A stretch of 64,000 nt of DNA, from the NCBI GenBank assembly GCA_047975025.1, contig JBKECY010000050.1, positions 38,055-102,054 of the forward strand, read 5' to 3'. This document shows positions 6,930 to 61,673 of this stretch, piece by piece (position 1 is the first letter of the stretch; the number at the start of each line of letters is the position of its first letter). The translations under genes and the position numbers were made by a program. Below the pieces are notes generated by a model. The model did no database searches. It saw only the letters and a program-made list of their open reading frames with translations, and was not told the origin of the DNA. Source of the DNA: Lachnospiraceae bacterium. Its GTDB lineage: Bacteria; Bacillota; Clostridia; Lachnospirales; Lachnospiraceae.

Positions 6930-6948
6930 AGGCACTCCTTTGCAATTT

Positions 6949-8793: not shown

Positions 8794-10120
8794 ATGAAGA
8801 AGAAAGTAGTTGCCTTGCTGGTAATGAGTGTTATGGCAGTGAGTCTGTTAATGGGGTGTGGCGGTTCAAGTGATACGAAACCCAGCGATACCAGTAATGA
8901 TGGGACACTGACAGAGGATGATATCACTATCACAATGATGTTCTCCAGAACAGAAGCAGAAAATGATTTTGAAACCAAGGTATTGCCGGCACTTGTAAAG
9001 GAAGCATTTCCCAAATATAACATTGGAAGTGACAAAGCTCCCGGACGACCAGTATTATACAGCTCTAAAAACAAAACTTGCATCTGGAGAATGTGCCGAT
9101 ATCATCTTAGTACAGCCCAAATATGCGGGAGCAAATTCAGTTATAAGCCTGGCAAAAGCCGGATATTTGGAGCCGGTGGGAGATTTGAAAGTTATGGATC
9201 TGATTGGTGAAGCCGGTACAGAGTCTTTCACGTATGAGGAAGAAGTCTATGCGGTTCCCAATAGTATTACAACACTTGGCACGTATTATAATAAAGACAT
9301 GTTTGAGGCAAATGGCTTAGAGATTCCGACCAACTGGGATGAGTTCCTAAACGCTTGTGAGGTTTTGAAAAGTGCAGGAATTCAGCCGATTGTCATGGGA
9401 GATAAAGACATGTATGTGATGCAGTTCGGGCTATATCAGATTGCTGCAAATCAGGTATATGCACAGAATCCAAGCTATGATGATGAACTGAGAACAGGTG
9501 AAGTCAAATTCACGGATGAAGGAACCTGGGATACGGTACTTGAAATGTACAAGGAACTTTATGACAAAGGCTATATAGAATCTTCATCCTTAGGTCTTGG
9601 TGCACAGCAGGCAATTCAGAAATTCGTTGATGGCGAAGCGGCCATGACATTTGACGGAAGCTTTAACGCACCGGCACTGGAAGCAGAGGGTGCCGTAGCA
9701 TTTGAAAGAGGCTATTTCCCACTGCCGGGAAACAAAGCAGGAGAAGATATGTATGCATCAATTGCTATGGGAGCCGGTCCGGCGATCTATGCGGGCTCTG
9801 ACTACATTGATGAATGCAAAGCGATTCTGGAATTGTGGTTCGACGGAGAATCAGATATCTGGCAGGCATATGTAGATTCAGGAAAGATTATCCCCACATA
9901 TGGATACGGTGCGGATAATATTAACCCTCTGTTCCAGACATTCGTGGAGCTTTATAATGACGATAAATCCTTCTATTGGTGCAACCAAGGATGGCCGGCA
10001 GGAACAGAGACAGAAATGGAAGCATTATTCAGTGAAGTCATAGGACAGCAGGGAACCACCGTAGCTGATATCACGACCGGAATGCAGAATAAATTCGAAG
10101 AACTTTATACAGAAGATTAA
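8794..10120 (+). pseudogene. ABC sugar transporter substrate-binding lipoprotein, reading frame interrupted (+1) near 9007-9012
   Basis: Signal peptide plus lipobox (LLMGCGGSS) in ORF 8794..9210. The family-1 SBP body is in ORF 9023..10120. Removing one C of the CCC at 9010-9012 joins ...LVKEAFP to NITLEVTKLPDDQYY... Confidence 0.8.
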
Positions 10121-16595: not shown

Positions 16596-17138
16596 GTGAG
16601 ATTTCAAAGATTTGCATTAAAAGATATAGTGTTTCTGGCGATTATGGCGGCAGCATTGCTGTTGCTGGGGGCGATTTCCATGCCACTTATGGGCGTCCGG
16701 ATCTTCGGTATTCAGACATTGCTTACAGGACCGTTGTATGCAGTAATGACAGTGATAGCGCTGACGAAGGTACCAAAGCCAGGAGCACTTATTTTATTGG
16801 GCTTTTTTAACGGAATTATTCTTTTTATGATGAGTCCGATCATGTTGTTGTCAATGTTGGTCGGGGCGGTCCTTTCAGAGGCGGTCGTTGCGGTTATTTT
16901 CAGAGGATTTGACTCACCCAAGGCCAGATGCCTGGCAGCAGCGTTGTTTATCCCGCTTTCTTTACCGGGACAGCTCCTATTCTATGGAGTTTTAGATCCG
17001 GAAGCATGGGGGGAGCTGCAGCACCAGCCTCTTATGACCGTCATCATTGTAGCCGCTACGGTTCTGCTGAGTGCCCTGGGTGCCTGGGTAGGACAAAAAA
17101 TCGCTAAGGAATTGCAAAAAGCAGGAAAGTTGAAATAA
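16596..17138 (+). CDS. Putative ECF-transporter substrate-capture (S) component, Trep_Strep/MptD-like small membrane protein
   Basis: 180 aa, about 6 TM segments, strongly basic C-terminus (KIAKELQKAGKLK). It sits directly upstream of the EcfT and ATPase genes. The family name is from memory. Confidence 0.55.
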   Translation: MRFQRFALKDIVFLAIMAAALLLLGAISMPLMGVRIFGIQTLLTGPLYAVMTVIALTKVPKPGALILLGFFNGIILFMMSPIMLLSMLVGAVLSEAVVAVIFRGFDSPKARCLAAALFIPLSLPGQLLFYGVLDPEAWGELQHQPLMTVIIVAATVLLSALGAWVGQKIAKELQKAGKLK

Positions 17139-24148: not shown

Positions 24149-25090
24149 ATGCTTACGATATACAGGACAATAGATGGAAAGATCCAGGAAATCAATGAGC
24201 CGCAGGCAGGCTGCTGGATTACCATGACGAACCCGACAGCGGACGAAATTTTTTCAATCTCTGATTTATATAATATTGAAGTCGCGGACCTGCGCTCCTC
24301 TCTGGATGAGGAAGAGCGCTCCCGTATTGAGGTAGAGGATGAATATACGCTGATTCTGGTAGATGTACCAATTATCGAGGAAAGAAATGATAAAGACTGG
24401 TATGGTACCATACCGCTTGGTATTATAGTGACAGACGATGCCATTATCACAGTCTGTCTGCAGGAGACCGCAGTACTGACTCGTTTTATGGATGGTAGAG
24501 TACGCAACTTTTTCACCTATATGAAGACCAGATTCATACTTCAGATCCTGTATCGAAATGCGACGATGTATCTGCATTATCTGCGTATTATTGACAGGAA
24601 GAGCGAGCAGGTGGAAGAGCAGCTGCACGTATCGACGAGAAACCAGGAGTTGATTGAACTGCTGGAGCTTGAGAAGAGTCTGGTATATTTTACCACTTCG
24701 CTGCGCTCCAATGAAGTGGTGCTGGAGAAGCTTTTGAAGGTGGAGAGAATTAAGCAGTATCCGGAAGATACGGAATTGCTGGAAGATGTAATTATTGAGA
24801 ATAAGCAGGCAATTGAGATGTCGAATATATACAGCGGCATTTTAAGCGGAATGATGGATGCATTTGCGTCTGTCATATCGAACAACCTGAATATTGTCAT
24901 GAAATTTTTGGCAACTGTGACCATCGTTATGTCGATACCTACGATGATCTTTAGTGCCTATGGGATGAACTTAAATGCCGAAGGCATGCCGTTCTCTCAG
25001 AGCCCATATGGTTTTTGGGTGGTAATTTTGGTGTCGCTGTTGATTAGCTTGATCGTAGCCCTTGTTTTCTCGAAAAAGAAGCTTTTCTAG
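24149..25090 (+). CDS. corA: Magnesium/cobalt transporter CorA
   Basis: 313 aa. Cytoplasmic domain plus two C-terminal TM helices with the YGMN signature (FSAYGMNL). Confidence 0.9.
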   Translation: MLTIYRTIDGKIQEINEPQAGCWITMTNPTADEIFSISDLYNIEVADLRSSLDEEERSRIEVEDEYTLILVDVPIIEERNDKDWYGTIPLGIIVTDDAIITVCLQETAVLTRFMDGRVRNFFTYMKTRFILQILYRNATMYLHYLRIIDRKSEQVEEQLHVSTRNQELIELLELEKSLVYFTTSLRSNEVVLEKLLKVERIKQYPEDTELLEDVIIENKQAIEMSNIYSGILSGMMDAFASVISNNLNIVMKFLATVTIVMSIPTMIFSAYGMNLNAEGMPFSQSPYGFWVVILVSLLISLIVALVFSKKKLF

Positions 25091-25120
25091 GAGAGAGCAG
25101 GCGGTCATGTCTGGAGGAAT

Positions 25121-25957
25121 ATGAATTTTATTTACAAATTAGAACGCAAATATGGTAAATTTGGAATCAAGAACCTGACACTTTACATTATGATTTGTTA
25201 TGTCATTGGCTTTGCGCTGGACATATTGTTTCCGTCAATCCTGCCTTTTCTGACACTCAACCCGTATTATATTCTGCAGGGACAGGTCTGGAGGCTTGTC
25301 AGCTGGCTGTTAATACCGCCTTCCGGCGCCAGTATTTTTGTAATCATCATGCTCTTGTTCTACTACTCAATTGGTACGTCACTTGAGAGGGCATGGGGAA
25401 GCTTTCGGTATACGTTGTATATCTTTTCAGGCATTATCTTCACGATACTGGCTGCATTCCTGCTTTTTATATTGACCGGAGATGCAAGTACAAGTGTCAG
25501 CTACCAGTTTTCAACGTACTATATCAGCATGTCGATTTTTCTAGCGTTTGCTGCAACCTACCCGGACATGCAGGTTCTTCTATACTTTGTCATACCAATC
25601 AAGGTCAAGTGGCTTGCCTACGTCAATGTTGCGCTGCTTTTGTATAGTGCTTTTACGGGAATTCGACAGGGAACCTGGGCAGTCCTGTATGTGATCGTGG
25701 CATCACTTTTGAACTTTATATTGTTTTTCCTGGGAACCCGCAATATCAAGAGATTTCATCCCAAGGAAGTGCGCCGCAAGAAGGAATTCACACACGCTGT
25801 CAGTAAGAGCCGGGCAGAAAATGCGACGCATAAGTGTACAATCTGCGGACAGACGAATCTGGACAACCCGGATTTGGAATTTAGATTTTGCTCAAAATGC
25901 AAGGGAAATCATGAATATTGTCAGGAACACTTGTTTACACACCAACATATCAAATAG
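25121..25957 (+). CDS. Rhomboid-fold-like polytopic membrane protein with C-terminal Cys4-type zinc ribbon; no obvious catalytic GxSG motif
   Basis: 278 aa. QVWRLVSW and G..LE...G..RY..IY..SGI resemble rhomboid TM2/TM3. The C-terminus is HKCTICGQ...FCSKCKGNHEYC. Confidence 0.5.
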   Translation: MNFIYKLERKYGKFGIKNLTLYIMICYVIGFALDILFPSILPFLTLNPYYILQGQVWRLVSWLLIPPSGASIFVIIMLLFYYSIGTSLERAWGSFRYTLYIFSGIIFTILAAFLLFILTGDASTSVSYQFSTYYISMSIFLAFAATYPDMQVLLYFVIPIKVKWLAYVNVALLLYSAFTGIRQGTWAVLYVIVASLLNFILFFLGTRNIKRFHPKEVRRKKEFTHAVSKSRAENATHKCTICGQTNLDNPDLEFRFCSKCKGNHEYCQEHLFTHQHIK

Positions 25958-25969
25958 GAGGGACAGGCA

Positions 25970-27406
25970 TTGAGGAGAACGAAAATCATCTGTACAATGG
26001 GACCGCAGACTAATTCCATGGAAATGCTGCGCGAACTGGTCAAAAATGGAATGAATGTTGCAAGATTCAATTTTTCACATGGCGACTATGAAGAGCACAA
26101 GCAGCGTATGGATATGGTCAAGGCTGTACGTGAGGAACTGGATACGCCCATCGCATTGCTGCTGGATACCAAAGGTCCGGAGATCAGAACAGGGCGTCTG
26201 GAGGGCGGACAAAAGGTCTGTCTGGAGGTCGGAGAAACCGTCGTACTGACAACGGAAGACATTGTAGGTACCAGTGAGAGAGTTTCAATTAATTATCCGC
26301 TGCTGCCCTCTGAAATCAGTGCGGGACAGCGGATTCTACTGGACGACGGATTGTTCGAGCTTATTGTAGAGCAGATTCAAGGGACAGAAATCACCTGTTC
26401 TATCATCAATGGAGGAGAGTTAGGTGAGAAAAAGGGCGTGAATGTCCCGGATGTGGAACTCAAGCTTCCAAGTATTACTGCGCAGGATGAACAGGATATT
26501 TTGTTTGGAATATCGCAGAACATCAGCTATGTGGCGGCATCTTTTGTCAGGGATGACGATGCCATCTTAAAAATCAGAAATCTGCTGAACAGCCATGACG
26601 GAGAACATATAGGTATCATCGCAAAAATTGAGAATTCCCAAGGGGTCAGAAATATTGACAAAATCATACGTGCGGCCGATGGCATTATGGTAGCCCGTGG
26701 AGATTTGGGTGTGGAAATCCCGGCAAGTCAGGTACCGTATATTCAAAAGGAAATTATCAAGAAGTGCAATGACAGCTATGTGCCGGTCATTACGGCCACG
26801 CAGATGCTCGATTCCATGATTCGTAATCCGCGTCCGACCAGAGCCGAGGTTGCGGATGTGGCGAATGCTATTTATGACGGAACAGATGCCATCATGCTCT
26901 CCGGTGAGACGGCAGCGGGCAAATATCCGGTTGAGGCACTGCGTATGATGGTTGAGATTGCTGAAACAACAGAGGAATATGTTGACAATACCTGTCATGT
27001 AAGCCACAGAAGTATGTACCGCAAGCAGAATGTCTCAAGCGCAGTGGGAAGTGCCGCTGTGGCAGCTTCGCAGAACATCGGAGCTGTGGCAATCGTAACG
27101 CCGACAATTTCAGGCAGAACGGCTCGATTGATTTCAAGCTTTCGGCCGGAGGTTCCCATTTATGCAATTACACCGAATGAGTCGGTTATGCACAAACTGC
27201 AGCTATTCTGGGGTGTGACACCTATGATGGGGTCCGCGATGACTACGACTGAGTTTATAATTAAGCAGGCGATGAAATCCATTAAGCAAAGAGATCTTGT
27301 CCAAAAGGGAGACCTGATCGTATTTACTGCGGGCGATCCTGCCACAAATCTGGTAACTGGAGTCGGAGCTGTGACGAACATGATGCATATAATTGAAGCA
27401 CTATAA
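25970..27406 (+). CDS. pyk: Pyruvate kinase
   Basis: 478 aa. TTG start after an AGGAGGGA Shine-Dalgarno sequence. Motifs: TKIICTMGP, MNVARFNFSHG, MVARGDLGVEIP. Confidence 0.93.
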   Translation: MRRTKIICTMGPQTNSMEMLRELVKNGMNVARFNFSHGDYEEHKQRMDMVKAVREELDTPIALLLDTKGPEIRTGRLEGGQKVCLEVGETVVLTTEDIVGTSERVSINYPLLPSEISAGQRILLDDGLFELIVEQIQGTEITCSIINGGELGEKKGVNVPDVELKLPSITAQDEQDILFGISQNISYVAASFVRDDDAILKIRNLLNSHDGEHIGIIAKIENSQGVRNIDKIIRAADGIMVARGDLGVEIPASQVPYIQKEIIKKCNDSYVPVITATQMLDSMIRNPRPTRAEVADVANAIYDGTDAIMLSGETAAGKYPVEALRMMVEIAETTEEYVDNTCHVSHRSMYRKQNVSSAVGSAAVAASQNIGAVAIVTPTISGRTARLISSFRPEVPIYAITPNESVMHKLQLFWGVTPMMGSAMTTTEFIIKQAMKSIKQRDLVQKGDLIVFTAGDPATNLVTGVGAVTNMMHIIEAL

Positions 27407-27427
27407 TACACTTAAGAGGAGAGCAGT

Positions 27428-28717
27428 ATGGGAAAAAAGCCATTCGTAACGCTGGAGCAAATTGAAACGATTACAACGACATATCCGACACCTTTTCACA
27501 TCTACGACGAGAAAGGTTTGCGCGCCAATGCACAGGCATTGCTGGACGCTTTTTCATGGAATCAAGGATTTAAAGAGTTTTTTGCGGTCAAGGCCAACCC
27601 CAACCCGTTTCTGATTGAGATTCTCAAGGAATATGGATTTGGATGTGACTGTTCATCGCTTACAGAGCTGATGCTTTCCAAAGAGATGGGATTCTCAGGC
27701 AGTGAGATCATGTTTTCTTCGAATGATACACCGGCACAGGAATTTCGTTATGCTTACGAGCAGGATGCGACCATCAATTTAGATGATATTACCCACATTG
27801 CATTTCTGGAAGAAGCACTCGGAACGCTCCCTAAGAAGATCAGCTGCCGGTATAACCCGGGCGGACTCTTTAAAATCAGTACGGACATTATGGACAATCC
27901 CGGTGATGCCAAATACGGAATGACGACAGAGCAGTTGTTCGAAGCATTTCGTATTCTTAAGAGCAAAGGTGTGGAAGAGTTTGGAATTCATGCTTTTCTG
28001 GCGAGCAATACAGTTACGAATGAATATTATCCTACACTGGCCAAGACGCTGTTCGAAGTCGCAGTGAAGCTGCAGCAGGAAACAGGAGCTAAAGTATCCT
28101 TTATTAATCTTTCCGGTGGTATTGGTATACCGTATACACCGGAGCAGGCACCCAATGATATTGCTGTCATAGGTAAAAATGTACAAAAGGTATATGATGA
28201 AGTCCTGACAGCCGCAGGTATGGGGGATGTGGCACTGTATACGGAGCTGGGCCGTTTTATTACAGGACCGTATGGCGCACTGGTCACGAAAGCAATCCAT
28301 GCAAAGCATACACATAAAGAATATATTGGATGCGATGCGTGTGCGGTGAATCTGATGCGTCCAGCTATGTATGGAGCCTATCACCATATTACGGTTCTGG
28401 GAAAAGAAGATGCCCCTAAGGATCATGTCTATGATATTACAGGCTCTCTGTGCGAGAACAATGACAAGTTCGCGATCGACAGAGAACTGCCGGAAATTGC
28501 AACGGGAGATTATCTGGTGATTCATGATACCGGTGCACATGGTCATGCGATGGGATACAATTACAACGGCAAGCTTAAGTCGGCAGAACTGCTGCTGCAA
28601 AGCGATGGAGAAGTCAAACTGATTCGGCGTGCAGAGACACCGAAGGATTATTTTGCCACGCTGGATCTCTTTCCGATATATGAGAAGTTAAAGGCAGAAA
28701 CAGATCGAATCATGTAA
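27428..28717 (+). CDS. lysA: PLP-dependent Orn/DAP/Arg-decarboxylase family 2 enzyme, most likely diaminopimelate decarboxylase
   Basis: 429 aa. YPTPFHIYDE, the PLP-Lys motif FFAVKANPN, and C-terminal GAHGHAMGYNYNG. Confidence 0.7.
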   Translation: MGKKPFVTLEQIETITTTYPTPFHIYDEKGLRANAQALLDAFSWNQGFKEFFAVKANPNPFLIEILKEYGFGCDCSSLTELMLSKEMGFSGSEIMFSSNDTPAQEFRYAYEQDATINLDDITHIAFLEEALGTLPKKISCRYNPGGLFKISTDIMDNPGDAKYGMTTEQLFEAFRILKSKGVEEFGIHAFLASNTVTNEYYPTLAKTLFEVAVKLQQETGAKVSFINLSGGIGIPYTPEQAPNDIAVIGKNVQKVYDEVLTAAGMGDVALYTELGRFITGPYGALVTKAIHAKHTHKEYIGCDACAVNLMRPAMYGAYHHITVLGKEDAPKDHVYDITGSLCENNDKFAIDRELPEIATGDYLVIHDTGAHGHAMGYNYNGKLKSAELLLQSDGEVKLIRRAETPKDYFATLDLFPIYEKLKAETDRIM

Positions 28718-28761
28718 TTTGTTCTTTTAGAAACTGTGCAGCTTTTTTACAATCGTTGTAC

Positions 28762-28790
28762 TTGACTAAAAAAATTGTTGATGGTAAAAT
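28762..28790 (+). promoter_or_regulatory. Sigma-70-type promoter for the riboswitch-led transcript
   Basis: TTGACT (28762-28767), 17 nt spacer, TAAAAT (28785-28790), about 20 nt upstream of the riboswitch P1 helix. Confidence 0.6.
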
Positions 28791-28812
28791 GTACACAATT
28801 AAATATAACACA

Positions 28813-28979
28813 CAAGTAAGTGAGTCTGGTCTTGTACCAGAATTAGAGGGAATTAGGTTAGAGTCCTAAGCGATCCGGTCACTGTATTTGGATATGCGTC
28901 GTTTATGAAACCATTGTAGAGGAATCTATGAGAAGGGAAGCGGCGTGACAGTCCATAAGTCAGGAAACCTGCTTACTTG
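28813..28979 (+). promoter_or_regulatory. Cobalamin (B12) riboswitch aptamer
   Basis: An 8-bp P1 helix closes the element (CAAGTAAG 28813-28820 / CTTACTTG 28972-28979). The conserved core reads AGAGGGAATTAGGTTAGAGTCCTAAGCGATCCGGTCACTGT, and the B12 box is AAGTCAGGAAACCTGC (28957-28972). Confidence 0.88.
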
Positions 28980-29030
28980 GCAGAGGTGTAACTTCCGAGA
29001 AAAGTTGGAACCTATAGTTGATAACCATTA

Positions 29031-29059
29031 GTGTCTATTCATAGGAATAGGCACTTTTT
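29031..29059 (+). terminator. Intrinsic terminator of the riboswitch expression platform
   Basis: GTGTCTATT-CATAGG-AATAGGCAC hairpin (one G-U pair) followed by TTTTT. It lies 89 nt upstream of the ATG at 29148. Confidence 0.75.
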
Positions 29060-29264
29060 GCGTTTATTTTTAAAGGAAGGGGATGATTCAAAAGCAGACA
29101 GAGTTTTATCACCACAAATTATTTCAGCAGGAGAAAGGTAGAGAATAATGAAAAAAGTTTTGAAGGGATTTATGAAAAGAGGATGCAGTTTATTACTGGT
29201 CATCGTAATGCTGCTGACATCTTTGCTGCCCCAGGTTGTATTGGCAGCTCCTGAGGGAGAAAGT

Positions 29265-29735
29265 GCGTATGCAACGATTAGTGTGGAGGCTTTTTCGGTA
29301 GGCGGAGGGTATATAGTGGAGCCAATCAGGGTTCCGATTACATCAGGGGAAAAAGTCTCAGATGTATTTGAGGCGGCTTTGACCCAAAAGGGGTATACCT
29401 CGACAACCGTTACAGAAGGGACATATTATGTCACCGGAATTACCGGAAGTTTTTCTTTTACACCGGCACTTCCAGCAAGCACCAGTGCCTCTGTACAGGC
29501 TTTCGCAGAGACGAATGGAGACCCTATCCGGGAAAATTCAGAGCAGACATTGGATATGAGCTTCTGGACACCGGGTACCTTGAAAGCAGGGGATTTTGCC
29601 ACAACCAGTGGCTGGATGTATGCGTATAATAATGAAATGCCCGATACCACAATGAACAATGTGGAAGTACAGGACGGGGATGTGATCCGGGTGCAGTACT
29701 CCATGATGTGGGGGGATGACATTGGAGCAGGTTAC
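29265..29735 (+). other. DUF4430 / transcobalamin-like C-terminal-domain homology region within the giant protein
   Basis: ATISVEAF..GGGYIVEP..VPITSGEKVSDVFEAAL...YYVTGITG...TSGWMYAYNNEMP......VQDGDVIRVQYS follows the pattern I recall for PF14478. Confidence 0.7.
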
Positions 29736-32700
29736 GGCGGCACCGGGCTGGACCCAGCCAACAAGGATGAACTGACAAGTTTTCTTGCTGAGGTCAACAG
29801 TGCGGCTAATTCCGCTGAACTTCTCGCAGACAGCACAGTCAGGAATGCCTATGATGCCGGTGTGCAGGCAGCGGCCCTCCTTGGAAACAGCCAGGAGGCG
29901 GTAAGCGGCAGTGCCACGACATTAAGAGCGGCGCTGGATAACTTTATTGCAGACCAGCCATCCCTGACCCTTTCACCCAAAGAAGCAGGCTTGCTGACAG
30001 GAGAGAGCGTACAACTCACAGCCGCACTGCAGAATCTGGAGGGGGAACCGCAATGGGTCAGTGATGCACCGGAGGTAGCTTCGGTTGACAGCACTGGACT
30101 GGTAGAAGCACTTACAGCAGGAAGTGCGACGATTACAGCCAGCATAGGCGAGGTGCAGGATACCTGTGTCATAACGGTAACACAGGCGCCTCAGGATGAA
30201 GAGAAAGTAGATGCCGTACTGGCCAAAGTGCAGAGCAGCTGGTTAAAGCTTGCAGCAGTATCTCCGGTAGATACTAATGTAATAACGCTGTTCAACACAT
30301 GGATTGCCGCACAGACGGACTTGAACACGCAGGGGATTACCGCAGCGCTAAAAAGCAGCAGTGATACGGATTATGTCGCACAGGACGGAAGCATAACGTA
30401 TATGCAGCCGCAAACGACGCCTGGTTCCATTGCTGTCAAAAATGTAACGCTCGTGTTTACCCTTAGCTGTGGAGAGGTCGTTAAAGATACACAGAATATC
30501 ACAGTTCAGCTTGGGTGGGACAAAGCAGCCATGCTGAGCAAAATGAATGCGGAAGCAGATGTATTTACCGCAGATTTCATTAAAAAGGACAATACGGATC
30601 TGGAAAATGTTACACAGGATCTGACACTGCCGCAAATTGCCTCACAGTCTTATAGTCAGGCATGGTCTGTTGTGTCATGGGAATCATCCAATACGGATGT
30701 CATTCGTGTGGAGAGCACAGATCCATATGGAGGCTATGCAACACCTCTGGCCGGCAAGGTCACGCGTCCTGCCGAGGATACGCAGGTGACATTGACAGCC
30801 ACCTTTGGGTTAAAGCCACAGTGTCTGAATGACAAAGTGAATCCGGATCTTACATTTACGAAGACATTTACAGTAACAGTACTCGGTGAGGAAGTCCCGG
30901 TAGAAGATGGGGATGCAATTCGTGCCGAGATGCAGGCGAAGCTCGACAAATACTATGTTTCGGATCTGCTGACAGATTTCGTGACAAAGGAAAAGCTGGA
31001 CCTGAATCAGGTAGTAGGCGATATCCAGCTGCCGATCCCAAGCAGGATCGCAGTGGATACAGGGGATACAAAATTCGTATCCAATCAGATTAAGGTAACC
31101 AGCGATAATACGGAGATTGCCAGCATTAGCGGCTACCGAGTCAATGTAGATGTATTTGCGGCAGCAGACACCACGCTCAATCTGACAGTGACCTACACAA
31201 AAACAAGTGAACTGGGAAATACATACAGTGTGCAAAAAGTATTTCCTATCACAGTCAGAATGATCAGTGAAGCTGAACTGGATGCCGAAATAGCGCTTAT
31301 GGAGGCTGTCAAAGCACACTATTTTGATGGACTTAACGACGGAGCGAATCTGAATCAGAATACAATCGTAAATAATCTGCATGCTTTTAAGGAAGCAGTA
31401 TTTGCTGAAGACGGGCAAACGCTTGTCTGGGCATATCACATTGATGATACGACCGGGACGGGAATTATCCCGACTGATATTGACCCGGATGATCAGATGG
31501 GTGTCAATGGATACAGATTGTTCAAATCCACGGATAATTCGCTGATCCGTCATGAGAATCTGCTCGTAACACTGCCTGAAACCGAGAAGCAGGTTACAAT
31601 TTCATCGGTACTGACAAGCGCACGCTTTGGAGAGTGGGCAAAGTCACATCCTGAGAATGCGAAATTGCAGAAAGTATATCGTCAGCCTGTCGAGGTTACG
31701 GTTACGGTAAAAACGCAGGCCTATGTGGATGCACAGGCTGCCCTGCAGACGGCACTCGGTGAGCTTGCGGCTAAGGTCACAGAAGCTGAACAAATCGACA
31801 CAACGCTGTATACTGCTGAGTCTGTGAGCCTGTTCGATACAGCTTTGCAAGCGGCTCAGAATATTTTGTCGGATGATTCTATGACAGATCTCACAGCAGA
31901 AGTTGTGACAGCTGCCAAAGCTAGTCTGGAAGCGGCAATTCGCGGTCTGGTATATAAAAGTGCCGATTTAAGCGGATTACAAGAAGAAATAGAACGTGCG
32001 CAGAGTCTGGATTCTGCACTATTTACAGAAACCTCCTTTGCGGCAGTCACCAATATTCTGGGCGAGGCGAGGCTGTTAGTGGCAGCACAGCCTGTGATCC
32101 TGCAGCAGACGCAGGTGAATGCACTGGCGGAAAGCCTGAAGCAGGCAATTGACGGTTTGGTTTATAAAGAGAGCCAGAGCCGGCTGAAAAGTCTTAAATT
32201 CTCGGAGACCGGAGCTGACAGCACTTTATTACAGTCAACACCGGGATTTGAGAAAAACACCTTCGCCTATGATGTATCTGTATACGATTATCTGACGAGT
32301 TTCTATGTATATGCTGAAACAGAAAATACACAGGATGTGCTTAAATACTATGTACGGACATCCATGGGAACAACCAGTATTTATACACATGCAAGCGGCC
32401 CATGGAGAGGGGTTAGTACGACCGGCTCCGCAGACATTCCTTATAAATTAAGTAATGATGCAAGCAAGTTGTCTTCAACTGCTGTATGGCCGGATGTAAC
32501 CGTATATAATATACATCTGAACAAAATTGCCACTTTAAAAAATCTAAGTGTCAATGAGACAATAAAGCCGAGTACATTCGATAAGAATGTCAGAGAATAC
32601 CAGGCATATATTCCGGCCGGGCAGACAACGGTAGATATTACCGCTTCGGGATATAGTTCTGATTATAAAGTCAGAGCAGGGGAAGTAGAAGGCAAAAGCG

Positions 32701-35700
32701 ATAAGGTAATAAGCGTTCCTGTGGTTTGGGATGGGGACACGATGGAGGTTCCGGTCACTGTATATTCCGCAGATACAATCGCGTCAACTTATACAGTTAT
32801 CCTGCATAAAGAGCCTACCGCAGATGTACCGGACATTCTGTTACAGCCGACAGCAGGACAGAACTATGTGGATACGGATGCGGCAACGCCCATCAAAGTC
32901 AAAGCAAGTGCCAACGGAAGCCTGAGCTACCAGTGGTTCAAGAATACGACGGAAAGTACGCAAGGGGGCGTCAAAATTGACGGCGCAACGGCTGCTTCCT
33001 ACCAGCCGACCTATGGCCTGGTGACACAGACAGAGACATACTACTATTACTGTGTTATTACGAATACCAATACACAGGGAAGTTATGATACAACGACGGA
33101 TCTTGTGCATATCACCGTAAAGCCGGATCCGACACCCTATGATGTACAGCTTGTACCGTCGGACGGCAGTGAGCTTTCGGCGAACGGCTATTTCTGCGCA
33201 GTCGGAGACGAGGCGCAGGAGGTGAAAGTCACTTTCAAGAGTCGTGCACAAGGCGGGGTTGAGAACAATACGTATAAATATCAGTGGTGGACGAAGGATG
33301 CCAGCGGCACTGGTTCCGGTTCCACTAAGACGACGGATACGTTTTCGTTTGCAACAACACTTAACAGAGCACGTTATATCAGCTGCGTGGTAACCATCGC
33401 ACTGGATGGCGTCACTTACAAATCGGATTATAGGAATGCGGTCCTGTTTACAGTGTATGCCAAAGGAATAACGGCTACCACGATCTCAAAACAACCGGTG
33501 GCAGCAGAGTATGTTTGCGGTGCGGCCGATGTATTGCCGCTGTCAGTAACCATTAGTAACAACATTTCAGGAATGGATAATGCCTCTAATGTGCCGCAAT
33601 GGTATGTCAGTGACGACAATGTGACATTTGCGGCTATTGAAGGGGCTACGGAGCTGAGTTATACACCGCCGGCTACGTCAGAGCCTTCTGCAAAATACTA
33701 TAAATGCAAAATCACTTCCCGTCTGGTAAGCTACAATGGCAGAACCTATACGGCAGCCGTTGATTCAGATGCTGTTAAGGTAGGATTCTCGACATTAGAA
33801 GAGATTGTCGGAGAAACGTTGTGGGACGGAGAGGGTACGCAGGAAAATCCGTACCTGCTAAAGACCGCAGACGATCTGCTGCTGATGCAGCGTCTGGTTA
33901 ACGAAAAAGGAATTAATCTGTCAGGAAAATACCTGAAGATGGCAAATGATATTACATTACCCGAAGCATGGGTGCCTATTGGTTCCTTAAAACCGGGTAT
34001 GACATCGACATCTAATGGGAAGTATATCAATCCCTTCTCCGGTACTTTTGACGGAGGGAACTTCACGTTAACCGTCCCAGAGGATGGCCTGCCGCTTTGC
34101 GGCTATGTACGATTTGCATCAGTACAGAATTTGAATATTTACGGAACTAAAATCGCAGGCTACGGTCTTATCAATAATTTTACGGTAGACTACGGCGCCA
34201 CAGGTGTCTACAATGACTGGACAGCATTAGGCGCAGTTACGGCGAACATTGATAAGGTTACATTAAAGAGCGGTACAAAGACCTTAAAAGCGGGATTTTT
34301 AGGCGGCTATGCTTCCGCAGCCAATATTGTGAATTTTAATAACTGCCTTGTTGAAGAAGGGGTTATCATTGGCTACGATAAGAGCCAGACACAGATCGGT
34401 TCTTTTGCCGGCAATCTGGCCGGGACAATCAATAACTGCCATAGTTATGCTACGGTATACGGTACAGACCGGGTTGGTGGTCTGGCAGGTTCAAAAGGTG
34501 AGGCCATGGGAGTCTGCCGCGTAATTAACAGCAGCTTCCAGGGAACCGTAGAAGCGACTGGAAAGTATGTCGGCGGTATTTTCGGCTCCGGTTACACCTC
34601 AGCATCCGCACCTAATACACCTTGTGTTTCCGTACAAAACTGCTTTGTCAGAGCCGATATAACCGGCGGACAATACGTCGGTGGTATATTGGGAGCTGAG
34701 CCGGTTGTTGTACAGTGCTGGGCGAACGGTGTTGGTGCAATTCAGAACAACTATTTCTATGGAACGCTGTCAGGCGACGTAACAGGCGGTATTATAGGCC
34801 TGATGCATTCCTTGGATCGGTATAACATTATTGAGAACAACTACTTCTATGATTTGGGCGGCACAACAGATACAATTGGACACTGTGGATACGACTCTGA
34901 CGATTGCCAGGGAAGATACGAAATACCTTACAACAGATGCGTATTTCCGTTCAGACGACCCGTTAGGAGCAGATGCTGACAAGCTGGGACGGACTGTCAC
35001 AACAGAAGAGCTTTCAGATGGTACCATAACGGCAGCGCTTAATACAGGCGGCAGCAGTAGCAGGAATTGGGTTCAGGGAAGTTCCTTCCCGGAATTCGGT
35101 GAGGGTGAAGTGCTGTATGTGACAACCCTGGATATTACCGGCTACAAAGCGGAATACTCGACACTGGATGATTTTACAACTGAAGGAACGGTTGTCACTG
35201 CGTATATGAATGATGGAAGCAGCAAGCTGGTTGCCACAGAAGACGTAGAATTCTCCGGCTATATTCAGACAGCCGGTACGTGGACGATTACCGCTGTGTA
35301 TGGCGGCGCCATGAAGATGTTCAGTGTTAAGGTGCGGGCAGCCACAGATGAGGAAAAGGCACAAAAAGTAAGTGCTATGATTACTGCACTTCCCGAAGTG
35401 ACCCTGGACAGTGAAGATGCGATCACAGCTGTCCGGCAGGCGTATGACGGCTTGACGGATGTACAAAAAGAGCTGGTGAGCAACTATGCGCAGCTTACAG
35501 CAGCAGAAGACACGCTTTTGCAGCTGAAAGTCGATACACAGGCAGCGGAAGCAGCGACGCAGGCTATTGTTGCCATTGGAACTGTAACGAAAGATAGCGG
35601 GGATGCGATACAAGCTGCCCGTACAGCCTATGACGGACTGACAGAGGCTCAAAAACAACTGGTAACAGAAGATGTGCTCAAGACTCTGACCGATGCTGAG

Positions 35701-35727
35701 ACGGCGTTTGAAAAGTTGACTCAACTT

Positions 35728-36216
35728 GAAGGCTGGATCACAGAGGATGGATATCAGTTCTATTATGTTAATGGCAAGAAAGCCACTGGATTTACTGCAA
35801 TTGAAGGAAAGACGTATTATTTTAGCAAGGTAAAGGCCAGAGAAGGCCGTATGATGACAGGTTTCCAGACAATTGGAGGGTACAGATATTTCTTCAGTAA
35901 AGTAAAAGCAAGAGAAGGTTAGATGTTAACAGGCTTCCAGACAATCAATGGACATAAGTATTATTTCAGCAAGGTCGCTGCACGAAAAGGGCGCATGCTG
36001 ACAGGCTTCCAGACGATTAGCGGACACAAGTACTATTTCAGTGCAGTTAAAACGCGACAGGGACGTATGTTGACCGGACTTCAGTACATCAACGGGAAGA
36101 AATACTATTTTAGTATGTCAACAGCTACAAAAGGTCAGATGCTCAAAAGCAGATGGGTAAAGGTCGGAAATAAGTCCTATTATCTTGGAAGTAACGGAGT
36201 TGTTACGAAGAGTAAA
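35728..36216 (+). repeat. Tandem ~66-nt coding repeats (about 7 copies) encoding cell-wall-binding repeats (G-x-M-x-TGFQTI-x-G-x-KYYFS)
   Basis: The repeats are directly visible in translation: GWITEDGYQFYYVNGKKATGF / TAIEGKTYYFSKVKAREGRMMTGFQ / TIGGYRYFFSKVKAREG*MLTGFQ / TINGHKYYFS... Confidence 0.85.
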
Positions 36217-36276
36217 TAAGATGCAAAAGTAAAATGACCGAAATGACCGGAATCACAATAAAGTAGGAAAAAGTAC

Positions 36277-36305
36277 TTGCGAACCAGACGGTGATATGAT
36301 ACAAT
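36277..36305 (+). promoter_or_regulatory. Promoter for tRNA-Leu
   Basis: TTGCGA (36277-36282), 17 nt spacer, TACAAT (36300-36305), about 37 nt upstream of the tRNA 5' end. Confidence 0.6.
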
Positions 36306-36341
36306 GACTTCTGGTTCGCAAGAAATTCCTATTTTTTTCAT

Positions 36342-36425
36342 GCCGGCGTGTCGGAACTGGCAGACGAGACAGACTCAAAATCTGTTGTCCGCAAGGGCGT
36401 GTGGGTTCGAGTCCCACTGCCGGCA
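36342..36425 (+). tRNA. tRNA-Leu (anticodon CAA), class II with long variable arm; CCA not encoded
   Basis: Acceptor stem GCCGGCG/TGCCGGC; anticodon arm ACAGA-CTCAAAA-TCTGT; long variable arm GTCCGCAAGGGCGTG; T-arm GTGGG-TTCGAGT-CCCAC. Confidence 0.92.
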
Positions 36426-36495
36426 TACTATGAATGCTGAATATGCAGCGTTTTATTTTTTGAAAGTTGCATATTAAGTTGCATATGTTTCATAA

Positions 36496-36538
36496 AAGAA
36501 GGAGTCACTGTACGTATTACATACAGTGGCTCCTTCTT
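36496..36538. terminator. 17-bp stem hairpin terminator between tRNA-Leu (+) and the TraX-family gene (-)
   Basis: AAGAAGGAGTCACTGTA-CGTATTACA-TACAGTGGCTCCTTCTT. There is a T-rich flank on the minus strand (CTTTTAT) and TGCGTTTT on the plus strand. Confidence 0.7.
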
Positions 36539-36544
36539 TGCGTT

Positions 36545-37279
36545 TTACAGTCCCAGAATCACACGAAGCAAAGCTAGAATCATGAAATGGGCAGGATAAA
36601 AAATATAAAAGAAATACTTATTTAATCGAGGTCTTAGATTGGTATGAATATAAATCAGAGGCAGAGACAAGAGTGCAAATGCCTGCAGATCCAGCCCTAG
36701 CGGACCTATGTAGAAGTAGTCCCCAAGCCCCCATGCCAGCATCCAGAGCGCAATGGTGCATGCTGACAGCCAACGAGGTCGTTCGCGCATCAGATAGAAT
36801 AGAACGATTAACCCAATACCATACAGACCATAATCCACTCCGACCAGCCACTCGAAGAGTACCAGCAGCGGGAGTAAAAACCAGCGCTTTCTCAAATCAG
36901 ACAGCGCATAAATGGCAATGACACCCAGCAAGAGCGTAAATAAAATATTCAGGTTCAGAAAATCCGCATCCATTCCGCTGCTTTGTGCGGTGAGTCTGGT
37001 AATCACATAGGCTCCAAGAAAAAGGGATTGTGTGATTACCGCAAAAATCCCAAGACGAAGCATGTAACGCTTTATATTTCGGGTGTACAGACAGCCCACC
37101 ACGACGCAGTAGGCAATCAATGGGAAGGAAATCCGTCCAAGAACTGCCATGATTTGATTTTCGGGAAAAAACGCTTTATGGACATGATCAATGACCATAC
37201 TGATGATTGCAATGATTTTTAAAAGGTTCGTATCGAGGTTCTCGTTTATTTTAGCTGCTGTTTTATCTGCCTGTGTCAT
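36545..37279 (-). CDS. TraX-family membrane protein (putative acyltransferase-like)
   Basis: 244 aa polytopic protein. The N-terminus LLKIIAIISMVIDHV is characteristic of the TraX family. Confidence 0.7.
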   Translation of the reverse strand: MTQADKTAAKINENLDTNLLKIIAIISMVIDHVHKAFFPENQIMAVLGRISFPLIAYCVVVGCLYTRNIKRYMLRLGIFAVITQSLFLGAYVITRLTAQSSGMDADFLNLNILFTLLLGVIAIYALSDLRKRWFLLPLLVLFEWLVGVDYGLYGIGLIVLFYLMRERPRWLSACTIALWMLAWGLGDYFYIGPLGLDLQAFALLSLPLIYIHTNLRPRLNKYFFYIFYPAHFMILALLRVILGL

Positions 37280-37371
37280 TTAGCCTGCTCTTTCTTTAAG
37301 ATTGTACAATGGTGGTATAAATAGTTTATACCATAAGATGGTTGCACAAGGCAAGAAAAATCAGGATGACA

Positions 37372-38100
37372 TTAGTCGGCATAGCCTGTTTCCCGGACTC
37401 CCTGGATGATATTGCGCATATAGGTGTCGCGTACTTTGCGATAATCCCGCTGCCGTATATAGACGATATCCCCGTTTTTCATAATAAAGTCCTGTGTCAG
37501 CTCCTCTACATAATTCAAGTTTACAATATAAGCCCGGTGGCAGCGCAGAAAAGGAGGGGAGGGGAGCATTTTCTCCAGAGCATCCATAGAAGTATAGGTT
37601 GAGATTTCACCGGCCGTAGTATGAATTGTGCAGGTTCTGTTGTAAATATCGACATACATAATTTGACGCAGTGCGATGCTTAGTTCCTTTTTATTCGAAA
37701 GTACGACGCAGTAGGGTTCCTGACCGGGCGTACTTAATTTTATAGCCTGCTGAAGCGCGCGATTCACGTCCTCCTGTCTGGTCGGCTTTAGCAGATACTG
37801 CAGTGCCTGTACTTGGTAGCTCTCAAACGTATGCTCGCGGCTGGAAGTTGTAAATATAATAATACAGTCATTATCCTGTGCCCGCAGCTGCTGCGCTGTT
37901 TCAATTCCGGTCATTCCTTTCATATAGATATCCAAAAACACGATCTGATAGTGTTCGGTCACACAACTTTGTAAAAATGCCTCACCACTATGAAAACAAT
38001 GCAGATTCATAGCGACCTGACTGGCTGTAAGCTGTGTGCACAACCATTCCATATCTTCTTTGCGGTCCTCGCATACTGCAACATTATATGGTACTTTCAA
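37372..38100 (-). CDS. Orphan response regulator, REC plus LytTR DNA-binding domain
   Basis: REC domain (VAVCEDRKED..., IVFLDIYMKGMTG) and a LytTR-type C-terminus (FLRCHRAYIVNLNYV). I prefer the TTG start at 38100, which is preceded by GGAGGGG plus 6 nt; the ATG at 38115 has no Shine-Dalgarno sequence. There is no kinase gene nearby. Confidence 0.8.
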   Translation of the reverse strand: MKVPYNVAVCEDRKEDMEWLCTQLTASQVAMNLHCFHSGEAFLQSCVTEHYQIVFLDIYMKGMTGIETAQQLRAQDNDCIIIFTTSSREHTFESYQVQALQYLLKPTRQEDVNRALQQAIKLSTPGQEPYCVVLSNKKELSIALRQIMYVDIYNRTCTIHTTAGEISTYTSMDALEKMLPSPPFLRCHRAYIVNLNYVEELTQDFIMKNGDIVYIRQRDYRKVRDTYMRNIIQGVRETGYAD

Positions 38101-38793
38101 TATTGACCCCTCCATTCAAGACTAAAAACATCCACTATTATATAGGTAGAAAAACAACTTTTTTTCAAAGATATAGCCACCACATTTCAAGCAGGCAGTA
38201 AGATACCGGATAGGATGGCATGTCGTAATTTTAACATGTTTTATACCGCCCGCACAGTGTGAATTTTCTGAATAGTTTTGTAAAATTAATGAAAAGTAAA
38301 AAAAAGGAGATGTATTCGCAAACTTATATGCAATATTACTACAAAAAATGATGATGCACAAAAACGAAAAAAAGTCAAGTGTATTTTACTACATGCAAAA
38401 TTGCCCGAAGCGCACGTCCGAAAAAAGCAAAATTTGATACAATTGATATGTGATATGTGAGTTGTTACTTCATATGATTTGAACAGATATATTGTTGCGT
38501 TTCAGGAAGGAGGAAAATTTGGCAGTGAAGTATACACATACTAATGGAGGATGGCAGCAAGAGAATGTCATATTGGTTCTATCTGAAACTACGTGTTTGA
38601 CCAGGTGACAGGGGAGAAAGGAGAGAATAAAACAAAAAAATGGGAAAGCAGAAACATCTTGATTGATCAAATGTTTGAGTATTCAATACTAGAAAGTACG
38701 TAATTCAGACGCTTGGTGCGGTTCATACCCTTGTATGGGCTATAAGGCCGTTTCGATGATGCATTGGATTCGTACATGAGGAAAGGGAATGGT

Positions 38794-41700
38794 ATGCAAA
38801 AAAGAATATTAAGTTTTATGCTGGTTGTTGCAATGCTATTGCAAGTACTGGTACCAAATTTAAGTTTAAGCGTAAATGCGGCGAATGATGGAACAGCACC
38901 CTGGGTAGTTACTTATGAGAGTGGTGTTGGAGATGATTCGGTTACGAATTTACCAAGTATTACAACTGTTAATGTTCCGGCAGGGCAATATAACAGTACT
39001 AATTTGAGAGTAAATTCCCCGGAAAGAAGTGGGTATACTTTTACCGGATGGAAAGTTACATTTAATGCAGGTGCTACGCTGGATGCAGGATACCGGGGTA
39101 TGGTTATTGCTCCGGATACAGATGCATACTTGGGAGGCACCATAGCTGACAAAAAGTGGAGCACTGCAACACTGACAGCACAGTGGAAGGAAAATACTGT
39201 CGCTGACACAGGTTCTGTGCAGCTGTGGCTGTATTTAAATGATAGTAATTTTACTAGTGCTTCTAATAGGAATTACAGTCTGAAATCTGTTAATTCAGAT
39301 GTGTCCTATGCAGCAGTAGCAGTGAATAACTCAGTAAAGTTTAATAATGTTGCAAATGGAACATATAGACTTTACGAAACATTTGCCGGAGGGTACACTG
39401 TTGATATTACAACGCTTTATTCCGAAGCAGCTGATACAACCAATGTAGCAAGCCCCATAGTCATCAACGGCGATGAACAGGAAATGGGAATTTACTACTA
39501 TCAGATTGATACGGCAGTAGCTGCTGCTGGGACTATCAGCAAGTCGGCAACCCCTTTTCAGGGAAGTGGCATTGCCTTTTTCCTGAAATATACGAAAGTT
39601 CAGTATACGGCGGTTAGGGACGGTTATAGTCTGACGGGATGGACCTCTACGGGATCTGCTATTTCTGCAGGTGGGGAAGTAGTATTAACTAATAGGACTA
39701 CAGTTACTCCAATTTACAGCGCAAATCCTACACCTAAAAAAGTATCTCTTGAAATTTATCTGGATAATACGCCGACCAGAGGTGACAAGGATTTTTATCT
39801 GCAGAGCAAAGATGACCCGACTGTGACAGTTTCATCAAGCTCACTGGGAAGCGAGTGGGTTGCTTTTGATGCTGTACCTTCCGGAACCTATAAGGTTTTC
39901 CAAAAAGTTGGTCAATGGATAAGTGATACCGATTTGGATACGGGAGTTGAGGTTACGGTTGGCAGCAGCGATGTAACGACGGCCGTCAATTACTATACAG
40001 TTCAAGTGAACAATGCAGGCGGTGGTACATCGGATATAGTTACCGGCGAATATGTTAAAGGCTCGGTGCTTCCGATTCTTGCAACACCAAATGCAGGGTA
40101 TTCTTTTGCTGGTTGGGTTGTTGCAGCAAATCCTGAATATCTGCAAAATGCAAGTCAGCCTAATGCTACTTTGTATGTACAGAAGGACATGATCATTCAG
40201 CCGTTATTTGAGGAAATTGATACATACAAGATAGTTTTTGATACGAATAAAGGTACGGAAACTTATAGCCCTTATGAAGGTGGATATCAAAGTTCTTACT
40301 ATCTTGCAGGTGCAACACGCCCGGGTTATATTTTCGCAGGCTGGAAAGTCGTAGAAGGTGGAGCAGAACAACTGATTGCTGCCGGCAGTTCGGTTCTTTA
40401 CAGTGAACTCGCCACAGATTCGACTGTGTCGCAGGTTACTTTGCAGGCGCAGTGGCAGCGAAGAGATGTTGTTGTCAATCTGTCCTTAGATGGTGATTCT
40501 TACACTTCCAATGATGGAAACATTTACCAATTGCGTGATGCATCCGGAGAGGTTCTGTATACGGCGACAAGTGAAAGCGGCAAAGTAAGATTTAAAGGAG
40601 TTGTCGAAGGCGTAACATACTATTTATGGGAAGATGTACCGGCTAATTCAGTGGACTACCAATTCCTGAACGTAGATGGTGGCACGAACTTTGAAATCAC
40701 TCCGAGTGCTGCTGCGCTCACCACTCGCAATTTAAATTATTATACGTTAAACGTTGCTTCTGCGGAAAATGGAACCACTGAGCCAGGTACAGGCAGTGCG
40801 ACTGTATATCCGCAGGGAATGACAGTGGAGTTAAAAGCAAAGCCTTCAGATGGATATAAATTCGCAACATGGAATCCATCAGGTGCAAGCGTAGTTGCTG
40901 ATGCTGCTAAAGCAGCAACAACAATTGTGATAAAGGGGACGACTCAATTATCGCCGCTCTTTGTTGCAAAAAATAGATTTGGAGTTATTTATAAGCTGGC
41001 TGGCGGTTCTTCTGCTGCAATTCCGGCAAGCGTAAGCATATTAAAAGAAGAAAATGTAATTCTGGCTGCTGAGCCAACGCGTGCAGGTTATGTGTTTGCA
41101 GGCTGGGTAGTAACGGAGAATGGTTCATCAGCAACAGACAATCAGGTATATCAAGCAGGCCAGACACTTGCGTATGAAGATGCAAGAGCCAGCACAACGC
41201 CAGCTTACATTGAGCTGACAGCACAGTGGCAAACAAACACTGTTGAAGTAGCACCATATCTTGATGGTGCGCGTACAGCAAAGAACCTTTATCTTAAAAA
41301 TACAGATGGTGTATCTGGTGATATTACAGGAAGCATTATTGATTCAGACGGAACATGGGAGTTTGCAGGTGTACCGAATGGTACCTATGAAATTTACGAA
41401 GATGTAGCCGTATGGATTGGTGAAGATATCGCAACAGGTAAAACAATTACTGTTATGGATAATAGTGTATCGACAGAATTGCATTATTATACTGTAGACG
41501 TGTCATATGATACTGCACAGGGCAGTGTGAATATTGAAACGCGTGTATACCTTGAAGGAACTAAGGTTACTCTTTTAGCAACTCCTGCCACAGGGTATCA
41601 GTTCGCTAATTGGGGATATGACGAAGAGTACATTAAAGACAGCAATGCGTCACAGACGACGCTGTATGTACAGGAACCGGTTACTTTTGCACCTACGTTT

Positions 41701-60958: not shown

Positions 60959-60959
60959 A

Positions 60960-61634: not shown

Positions 61635-61673
61635 GATGGTATCCTCCTTGTAGAAGTCTGTATCCAATTGCTT

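Follow-up and report, generated by a model that had tools for sequence, protein, structure and literature searches.

The present analysis concerns a cobalamin riboswitch and the giant surface-protein gene that follows it in a 64,000-nucleotide (nt) stretch of DNA from a metagenome-assembled genome (MAG) of a Lachnospiraceae bacterium (GenBank assembly GCA_047975025.1, contig JBKECY010000050.1, positions 38,055 to 102,054 of the forward strand); this whole stretch is referred to here as the window. The riboswitch precedes a long open reading frame, ORF A, that encodes a secreted protein carrying, directly behind its signal peptide, a module that resembles the beta domain of transcobalamin. The protein probably functions, under B12 riboswitch control, in the capture of corrinoids outside and away from the cell and in their delivery to an importer whose genes lie elsewhere, and the gene is a damaged member of a previously predicted kind of Gram-positive B12-capture protein. 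The features that carry this proposal are the following:

28762-28790, + strand: sigma-70-like promoter, TTGACT, 17-nt spacer, TG-extended TAAAAT (pattern match only)
28801-28990, + strand: full-length cobalamin riboswitch aptamer, RF00174 (Rfam covariance-model scan)
29030-29065, + strand: intrinsic-terminator-like expression platform, 11-bp hairpin and T-run (pattern match only)
29148-34979, + strand: ORF A, 1943 amino acids, the riboswitch-controlled frame as it stands (ORF list, translation)
29148-29246, + strand: type I signal peptide, residues 1-33, MKKVLKGFMKRGCSLLLVIVMLLTSLLPQVVLA/AP, ending VLA/AP (read from the translation)
29247-29954, + strand: transcobalamin-beta-like SLBB/DUF4430 module, residues 34-269 (Pfam, AlphaFold2, Foldseek)

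The riboswitch match (86.9 bits against a gathering score of 31.5, E 4.7e-20) covers model positions 1-189 of 189 and is the single riboswitch match in an Rfam scan of the whole 64 kb. The aptamer core, AGGGAA with GGUCACUGU, and the B12 box, AAGUCAGGAAACCUGC, at about 28957-28972, are readable in the RF00174 alignment. The promoter-like site TTGACT-17-TAAAAT has 10 of 12 matches and the top score of the region, and the 11-bp hairpin at 29030-29055, followed by TTTTTGCGTTT, lies 92 nt ahead of the ATG at 29148. A previous reading of the window (the sequence-only reading) had described a complete cobalamin riboswitch with its own promoter and a terminator platform, and B12-dependent control of the gene; the riboswitch is borne out by the RF00174 check, sites matching the promoter and terminator are present as sequence patterns, and the proposed control is well founded on the RF00174 match. 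The signal peptide that it had reported is likewise found, and has no lipobox.

The AlphaFold2 model of the N-terminal module, generated from an alignment of 32 modules, has a predicted local distance difference test score (pLDDT) of 91.1 and a predicted template modeling score of 0.90. The predicted structure is a beta-grasp with a beta-hairpin straight after the helix (helix 38-48, then strands 52-56 and 62-67, in model numbering), an insert of ∼45 residues, and a four-helix tail; this placement of the hairpin is the distinguishing feature of transcobalamin-like members (PMC1796856). When the model was compared with the PDB by Foldseek, transcobalamin was the top match (4zrp, E 5.2e-4), the next being the isolated human transcobalamin beta domain (5no0, target-normalized TM-score 0.68) and a DUF4430 protein of Ruminococcus gnavus (3u7z), and the first 19 PDB matches were all transcobalamin, haptocorrin, intrinsic factor, or 3u7z. 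The TM-scores normalized to the isolated beta domain as target are 0.61-0.68, at sequence identities of 11-16%. Pfam assigns DUF4430 to residues 152-185 with 28.7 bits, above the cut-off of 23.8. At the level of the family model and of the predicted fold, these results support a transcobalamin-beta-like N-terminal module, as had been claimed from the sequence; the claim now has both a DUF4430 score above the cut-off and a structural model with transcobalamin beta domains as its top PDB matches.

The module is shared by a large set of surface proteins of Firmicutes that would form part of the B12 regulon. When residues 33-269 were searched exhaustively by HMMER, 996 clusters, defined at 50% identity, were obtained at E ≤ 1e-3 and 451 at E ≤ 1e-10, with many members being 1000-2800 amino acids long and containing 1-7 copies of the module. 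The exhaustive search was needed to reveal this family, since a word-indexed protein search found three relatives with a single sequence and 33 with a profile; a single-protein scan of genome contigs gave one useful relative (L001, an Oscillospiraceae MAG). In the 32-module alignment, G22, P27, and W124 (of an SGW motif) are invariant and a GDxxR motif is nearly so. The protein from the window has a single module, a profile search having found no second SLBB copy in it.

The linkage between riboswitch and module was examined in two samples of related loci. The first consisted of the loci of the nine proteins with the closest modules, and eight of these (L003, L004, L006, L007, L008, L009, L011, and L012) have RF00174 a short way upstream of the gene in the same orientation, the ninth, L010, having no RF00174 upstream. 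The second was derived from a metagenome scan with two conserved peptide patterns, which gave 492 relatives, from which 80 loci were kept and grouped into 20 clusters at 90% nucleotide identity; RF00174 is upstream on the same strand in 13 of the 20 clusters. Three of the riboswitch-negative clusters have less than 1.1 kb of upstream sequence. The aptamer mostly ends 450 nt or less before the ORF, and 17 of 20 family leaders, that of the window among them, have a hairpin with a T-run in the interval that separates aptamer from ORF. In the combined samples, which may overlap, 21 of 29 loci, or 21 of the 26 informative ones, are RF00174-positive. Because of these two frequencies, it can be concluded, from sequence comparison, that the combination of a cobalamin riboswitch, a terminator, and a surface protein with an SLBB module is a conserved and recurring arrangement and not a chance feature of the window; a search for synteny of riboswitch and DUF4430 giant gene in related genomes, which the sequence-only reading had put forward as a check, thus has a positive outcome.

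The neighbors of the related genes are also informative. An energy-coupling factor (ECF) importer, with a CbiQ-type T component, a double ATPase, and an S component, adjoins the gene in L003, L006, L008, and L012, with a small DUF4430 gene coming next in L003, L006, and L012. L003, L006, L009, and L012 further encode a prenyltransferase-like alpha/alpha toroid, which has the fold of the transcobalamin alpha domain; in L003 the toroid has a gene of its own, and in L006 and L012 it forms part of the giant protein. The giant genes of L004, L007, and L011 are orphans like that of the window. The close-module relatives differ in anchor (SLH, dockerin, or membrane helix) and in stalk. Some loci have more than one aptamer: in L006, one cobalamin riboswitch (5431-5616) precedes the giant SLBB gene and another (16754-16939) lies after the ECF operon, before the next gene, and in L074 two tandem cobalamin riboswitches (105-240 and 1016-1240) precede the gene. 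The cluster represented by L036 (ORF 2515-7386), which stands for 48 metagenome contigs, several of them named as human gut, has no RF00174 match at the gathering score in the 2.5 kb ahead of this ORF.

The riboswitch-controlled gene had been described from the sequence as a single gene of ∼7.1 kb encoding a wall-anchored protein. The first statement does not hold and the second is not supported, since the coding region is divided into three ORFs by a frameshift and a stop codon:

34831-35922, + strand: ORF B, in another frame, continuing the ancestral gene (translation, Pfam, homology to L001)
34875-34892, + strand: site of a +1 frameshift, ACAATTGGACACTGTGGA, at about 34880 (frame switch of the homology to the intact L001)
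35920-35922, + strand: in-frame TAG within the wall-binding repeats (sequence comparison of the repeats)
35923-36219, + strand: ORF C, in the frame of ORF B, with four further choline-binding or cell-wall-binding repeats (Pfam)

ORF A corresponds to GenBank MFV0528797.1, annotated in the Lachnospiraceae MAG as "Ig-like domain-containing protein." L001, which is 49% identical over ORF A residues 1560-1911, has one unbroken frame through the equivalent point and on into a Big_3 domain; the homology to it changes frame at 34875-34892, and a +1 frameshift is therefore present in the window. The TAG stands in the context GGT TAG ATG, the counterpart of which in the last repeat is GGT CAG ATG, so that a single C-to-T change accounts for the stop. 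Recoding of this TAG, for example as pyrrolysine, was considered and rejected, because TAG is an ordinary stop that terminates 12 of the 37 large ORFs of the window and the methyltransferase encoded there is of the methanol type. A Logan assembly contig (L014, run SRR30067235, 22.7 kb) is 100% identical to window positions 26545-39645, both lesions included, and a contig from SRR30067233 is identical to positions 24712-32140. Because they are identical in a separate assembly of another run, the frameshift and the TAG are reproducible and probably real, and assembly error is the less likely cause of the frameshift now that a different assembler has returned the same sequence. The wall-binding repeats are confined to ORFs B and C; as the sequence is written they are therefore not joined to the secreted N terminus, being separated from the frame of the signal-peptide-bearing ORF A by the frameshift at ∼34880 and the TAG at 35920.

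These features suggest the following mechanism. When a corrinoid, adenosylcobalamin or another, is abundant in the cell, the aptamer would fold and the terminator at 29030-29065 would halt transcription, whereas when corrinoids are scarce the giant protein would be made and exported. Outside the cell, the N-terminal transcobalamin-beta-like module would bind corrinoids, held away from the wall by a stalk of ∼2000 residues composed of Ig-like, FIVAR, cadherin-like, and repetitive domains, which in its ancestral form would have ended in choline-binding-type wall repeats. The ligand would then be passed to a membrane importer, of the ECF type or BtuFCD, encoded elsewhere in the genome. Since the anchor is cut off in the genome of the window, the present product is probably released rather than anchored, or else the gene has recently begun to decay. 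Previous studies have shown that the isolated beta domain of human transcobalamin binds cobalamin and cobinamide by itself (PMC5599065), and by analogy it is plausible that a module could bind without a toroid partner. A stronger version of the proposal, that the 235-residue module, beta-grasp plus helical bundle, is a self-sufficient, high-affinity corrinoid binder that Firmicutes display on long stalks or release, is advanced more tentatively, and we would put its chances at slightly below even.

Several observations weigh against a role in corrinoid capture. The Foldseek E-values are modest, and the DUF4430 match is limited to the C-terminal half of the model (profile positions 38-71 of 72). 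A sequence search of the N-terminal 236 amino acids against PDB chains gave no match at E ≤ 10, and a search of the PDB with the 32-sequence family profile gave chance matches only, with no transcobalamin among them; the transcobalamin link therefore rests on Pfam and the fold. An alpha/alpha-toroid partner was sought as Prenyltrans or SQHop_cyclase matches, of which there are none in the protein or the window, and the window is also without a transporter, with no btuFCD, ECF, or cob genes in its 64 kb; the previous statement that no btuFCD or ECF-CbrT gene is adjacent thus extends over the entire stretch. Folding of the leader revealed no convincing antiterminator, and the giant gene is disrupted by the frameshift and the TAG. 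Among the metagenome clusters, L036, L083, L025, and L094 have no riboswitch despite at least 3.5 kb of upstream sequence, and L036 is the most often recovered cluster and the most abundant in human gut metagenomes; either some family members are not riboswitch-controlled or their riboswitches are divergent or further away. Finally, corrinoid binding by the module family is a prediction.

The lesions raise the question of whether the gene is simply a pseudogene, a former B12-regulated surface protein gene that was inactivated by the frameshift near 34880 and the nonsense codon at 35920 and has no present function. That both lesions are found in the Logan assembly of a different run, at 100% identity over 13.1 kb, favors this explanation, and so does the presence in the window of a second frameshifted gene, that of an ABC solute-binding lipoprotein (at ∼9010); it should be noted, however, that the two assemblies are perhaps not independent, since the MAG could stem from the same reads as the Logan contig. 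Any decay would have to be very recent, given the 5.8 kb over which ORF A stays open and the lack of further stops in ORFs B and C. Moreover, the riboswitch, promoter-like site, ribosome-binding site, signal peptide, and SLBB module all seem intact, and a shortened secreted protein of 1943 amino acids could still bind ligand, so a complete loss of function appears unlikely.

Extracellular corrinoid capture by the encoded protein must also be weighed against other ligands and other functions of the module. The ligand might be heme, an incomplete corrinoid such as cobinamide or cobyric acid, or a lower-ligand base, in place of complete cobamides. SLBB domains bind diverse soluble ligands (PMC1796856), the transcobalamin beta domain binds cobinamide too (PMC5599065), and in a preprint on Lactobacillus sakei an ECF operon with transcobalamin-alpha- and beta-like proteins is argued to import heme (10.1101/864751). 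That proposal is based mainly on docking, however, and, with cobalamin riboswitches at 21 of 29 loci, the family is connected to corrinoid status and not to iron or heme, which argues against heme for the module family of the window; incomplete corrinoids, for their part, would still represent corrinoid scavenging. A different ligand in this sense is distinctly improbable. More improbable still, to the point that we give it very little weight, is that the protein is an adhesin or surface structure that uses B12 as a niche signal, its SLBB module binding a polysaccharide or protein and not a corrinoid. Adhesin-type modules (Big_2, Cadherin-like, FIVAR, and Big_3) do make up most of the protein, the neighboring gene encodes another giant surface protein and is riboswitch-less, and sugars are the presumed ligands of the SLBB domains of ComEA and polysaccharide exporters (PMC1796856), but both the fold matches and the topology place the module within the transcobalamin-like clade rather than the Nqo1/ComEA one. 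Furthermore, relatives occur in operons with ECF importers and transcobalamin-alpha-like toroids, and what is kept across unrelated architectures and anchors (SLH, dockerin, membrane helix, and choline-binding) is the SLBB module with the riboswitch and not the stalk.

The concept of a B12-scavenging surface protein is not new. Burroughs, Balaji, Iyer, and Aravind defined the SLBB superfamily in 2007 and described transcobalamin-like SLBB proteins from low-GC Gram-positives with signal peptides, wall anchors, fusions to Ig, FIVAR, or beta-propeller domains, and CbiO/CbiQ neighbors, for which scavenging of B12 or its precursors was proposed (PMC1796856). The protein of the window fits this description in its signal peptide, transcobalamin-like beta-grasp, fusion to Ig-fold and FIVAR domains, surface-attachment module, and low-GC Gram-positive origin, and relatives of its module are found in operons with CbiQ/CbiO-type ECF components. 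It differs in that its gene is an orphan with no transporter nearby and is disrupted, in having a choline-binding-type anchor and not LPXTG, and in the ∼45-residue insert and fixed helical tail of its module. Riboswitches are not mentioned in the 2007 study, whereas a cobalamin riboswitch is found upstream here, in the window and in 21 of 29 related loci; literature on DUF4430, SLBB, or transcobalamin together with riboswitches contained no description of riboswitch-controlled giant SLBB proteins, in a search that did not extend to databases of the RegPrecise type. The sequence-only reading had stated that no Gram-positive equivalent of the known surface corrinoid-capture proteins was characterized, which is correct with respect to experimental work but overlooks the prediction made in 2007.

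The beta domains of mammalian transcobalamin, intrinsic factor, and haptocorrin (4zrp, 5no0, 5np4, 2pmv, and 4kki) are the top structural matches and belong to the same Pfam family. In comparison with them the module of the window is only 11-16% identical, lacks a fused or adjacent alpha6/alpha6 toroid, has the extra insert and helical bundle, and is located at the tip of a giant bacterial stalk. RUMGNA_00854 of R. gnavus (3u7z), third and fourth among the fold matches, is like it a Lachnospiraceae DUF4430 beta-grasp, but is a small single-domain protein of ∼97 residues, a structural-genomics deposit described as a "putative metal binding protein"; the family profile gave no sequence match to it. 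The Lsa1836-1840 ECF operon of L. sakei has the same gene set as L003, L006, and L012, but its proteins are small and not giant, the proposed substrate is heme, and no riboswitch is reported (10.1101/864751). Unlike an ECF-CbrT or BtuFCD uptake operon, the gene of the window has no transporter genes in its unit or adjacent to it.

Surface capture of cobamides has been established experimentally only for BtuG, BtuH, BtuJ, and BtuK of Bacteroides (PMC13616437). These proteins bind cobamides outside the cell, are repressed by riboswitches, and supply a membrane transporter, and thus resemble the protein of the window in its proposed role, and BtuH2 also resembles it in carrying its binding domain on Ig/PKD-like spacers (PMC13616437). 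Their folds (beta-propeller, BtuH fold, and jellyroll DUF4465) are unrelated, however, and Pfam and NCBIfam found no match to the BtuG beta-propeller, the BtuH B12-binding domain, or the DUF4465 jellyroll in the protein of the window. They also differ in being outer-membrane lipoproteins that act with the TonB-dependent BtuB, whereas the signal peptide of the window's protein is without a lipobox.

How Gram-positive anaerobes acquire corrinoids outside the cell is an open question, and a review from 2026 refers to the wall-associated cobamide binders of Firmicutes as "entirely uncharacterized" (PMC13616437). The locus, and more so the family-wide linkage of cobalamin riboswitch and SLBB module, to which an ECF importer with a transcobalamin-alpha-like toroid is often added, provides a concrete, testable candidate module for this role. 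The module is small, with ∼235 residues, has a confident predicted fold, and is found in many metagenome contigs labeled as human gut; the copy in the window is ill suited to testing, as its gene is disrupted and its source is an uncultured MAG, and intact relatives would be better. If the module is a self-sufficient binder, it would represent a Gram-positive counterpart of the BtuG/H/J capture relay of Bacteroides and a widespread player in gut competition for B12, as the two peptide patterns alone matched 492 metagenome stretches, many of them labeled human gut. The locus is thus a good lead into the question, yet one that would not surprise a specialist.

Behind the N-terminal module, the stalk and the separated C-terminal part contain the following:

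29961-30179, + strand: Big_2 Ig-like domain, residues 272-344 (Pfam, 43.6 bits)
30576-30884, + strand: aBig_2 domain, residues 477-579 (Pfam, 31.6 bits against a cut-off of 27, segment scored alone)
31752-31949, + strand: FIVAR helical domain, residues 869-934 (Pfam, 35.4 bits against a cut-off of 29.2, segment scored alone)
32535-32801, + strand: Cadherin-like beta-sandwich, residues 1130-1218 (Pfam, 32.7 bits)
34065-34880, + strand: repetitive VGGxxG region (no Pfam assignment; 49% identical to the Oscillospiraceae MAG protein)
about 35146-35334, + strand: Big_3 domain in ORF B (Pfam)
about 35716-35919, + strand: first choline-binding-type repeats, at the end of ORF B, weaker than those of ORF C (Pfam)

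The aBig_2 and FIVAR domains exceed their cut-offs only when the segment is scored alone. Helical repeats follow Big_3 in ORF B, and ORF C matches Choline_bind_1 with 64 bits and Choline_bind_3 with 62.7 bits in Pfam; NCBIfam has no family for ORF A. Of the domains listed previously, DUF4430, Big_2, Cadherin-like, FIVAR, and the choline-binding repeats are confirmed by Pfam, but the GLUG-type region is not, residues 1621-1911 having no Pfam match to GLUG and showing VGGxxG-type motifs alone. L001 (JAEEUX010000177.1) is the closest relative of the C-terminal two-thirds of the giant protein, with which it has the VGGxxG region and Big_3 in common, and its canonical DUF4430, GEFDNGNLSGWMYTLNGKHPVLGVAQQYLENGDEIVLHY, is located toward the C-terminal end (∼4700-5100) and not at the N terminus; the same stalk is thus found with the capture domain at a different position.

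The genes upstream of the riboswitch encode chorismate synthase, CorA, a 278-amino acid protein without a family, pyruvate kinase, and diaminopimelate decarboxylase. The ORF of the 278-amino acid protein (25121-25957, + strand), between those of CorA and pyruvate kinase, was assigned to no family by Pfam or NCBIfam and is a hypothetical protein in GenBank. Downstream, the giant gene is followed by a hairpin with a T-run, tRNA-Leu(CAA), TraX, a LytTR response regulator, and a second giant surface protein:

36277-36339, + strand: long hairpin CTTGCGAACCAGA...TCTGGTTCGCAAG, then a T-run (folding, −30.5 kcal/mol)

This hairpin has a 13-bp stem, immediately follows ORF C and immediately precedes tRNA-Leu(CAA), and is likely to be the terminator of the ancestral full-length gene. 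A promoter-like sequence, TTGCGA-17-TACAAT with an upstream TG, is located within it (region 36277-36426) and could drive the tRNA. TraX and the LytTR response regulator are encoded on the opposite strand between the two giant genes. The second of these (38764-47178, + strand), 2.5 kb downstream, encodes 2804 amino acids with eight Flg_new/InlB B-repeats, a SpaA-like region, and a C-terminal DUF5648, and has no riboswitch.

At the far end of the window, a methanol methyltransferase island (59738-64000) comprises a PocR-AraC regulator (+ strand), a CobW-like GTPase (− strand), MtaB (61674-63050, − strand, 576.7 bits), and a URO-D/MtaA-type gene (+ strand) that starts at about 63059 and runs off the window end; no gene for the corrinoid protein MtaC is present within the window. 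Because these four genes are present, the earlier remark that a corrinoid-dependent MtaB/MtaA island downstream implies a demand for corrinoids stands. At the other end, the gene of the ABC solute-binding lipoprotein (SBP_bac_1, 8795-10120, + strand) is apparently frameshifted near 9005-9015, with a lipobox signal peptide, MKKKVVALLVMSVMAVSLLMGCGG, and the protein body, FPNITLEVTKLPDDQYY, in different frames; the shift fits an extra A in CCCAAATAT, and this is the second broken gene in the 64 kb.

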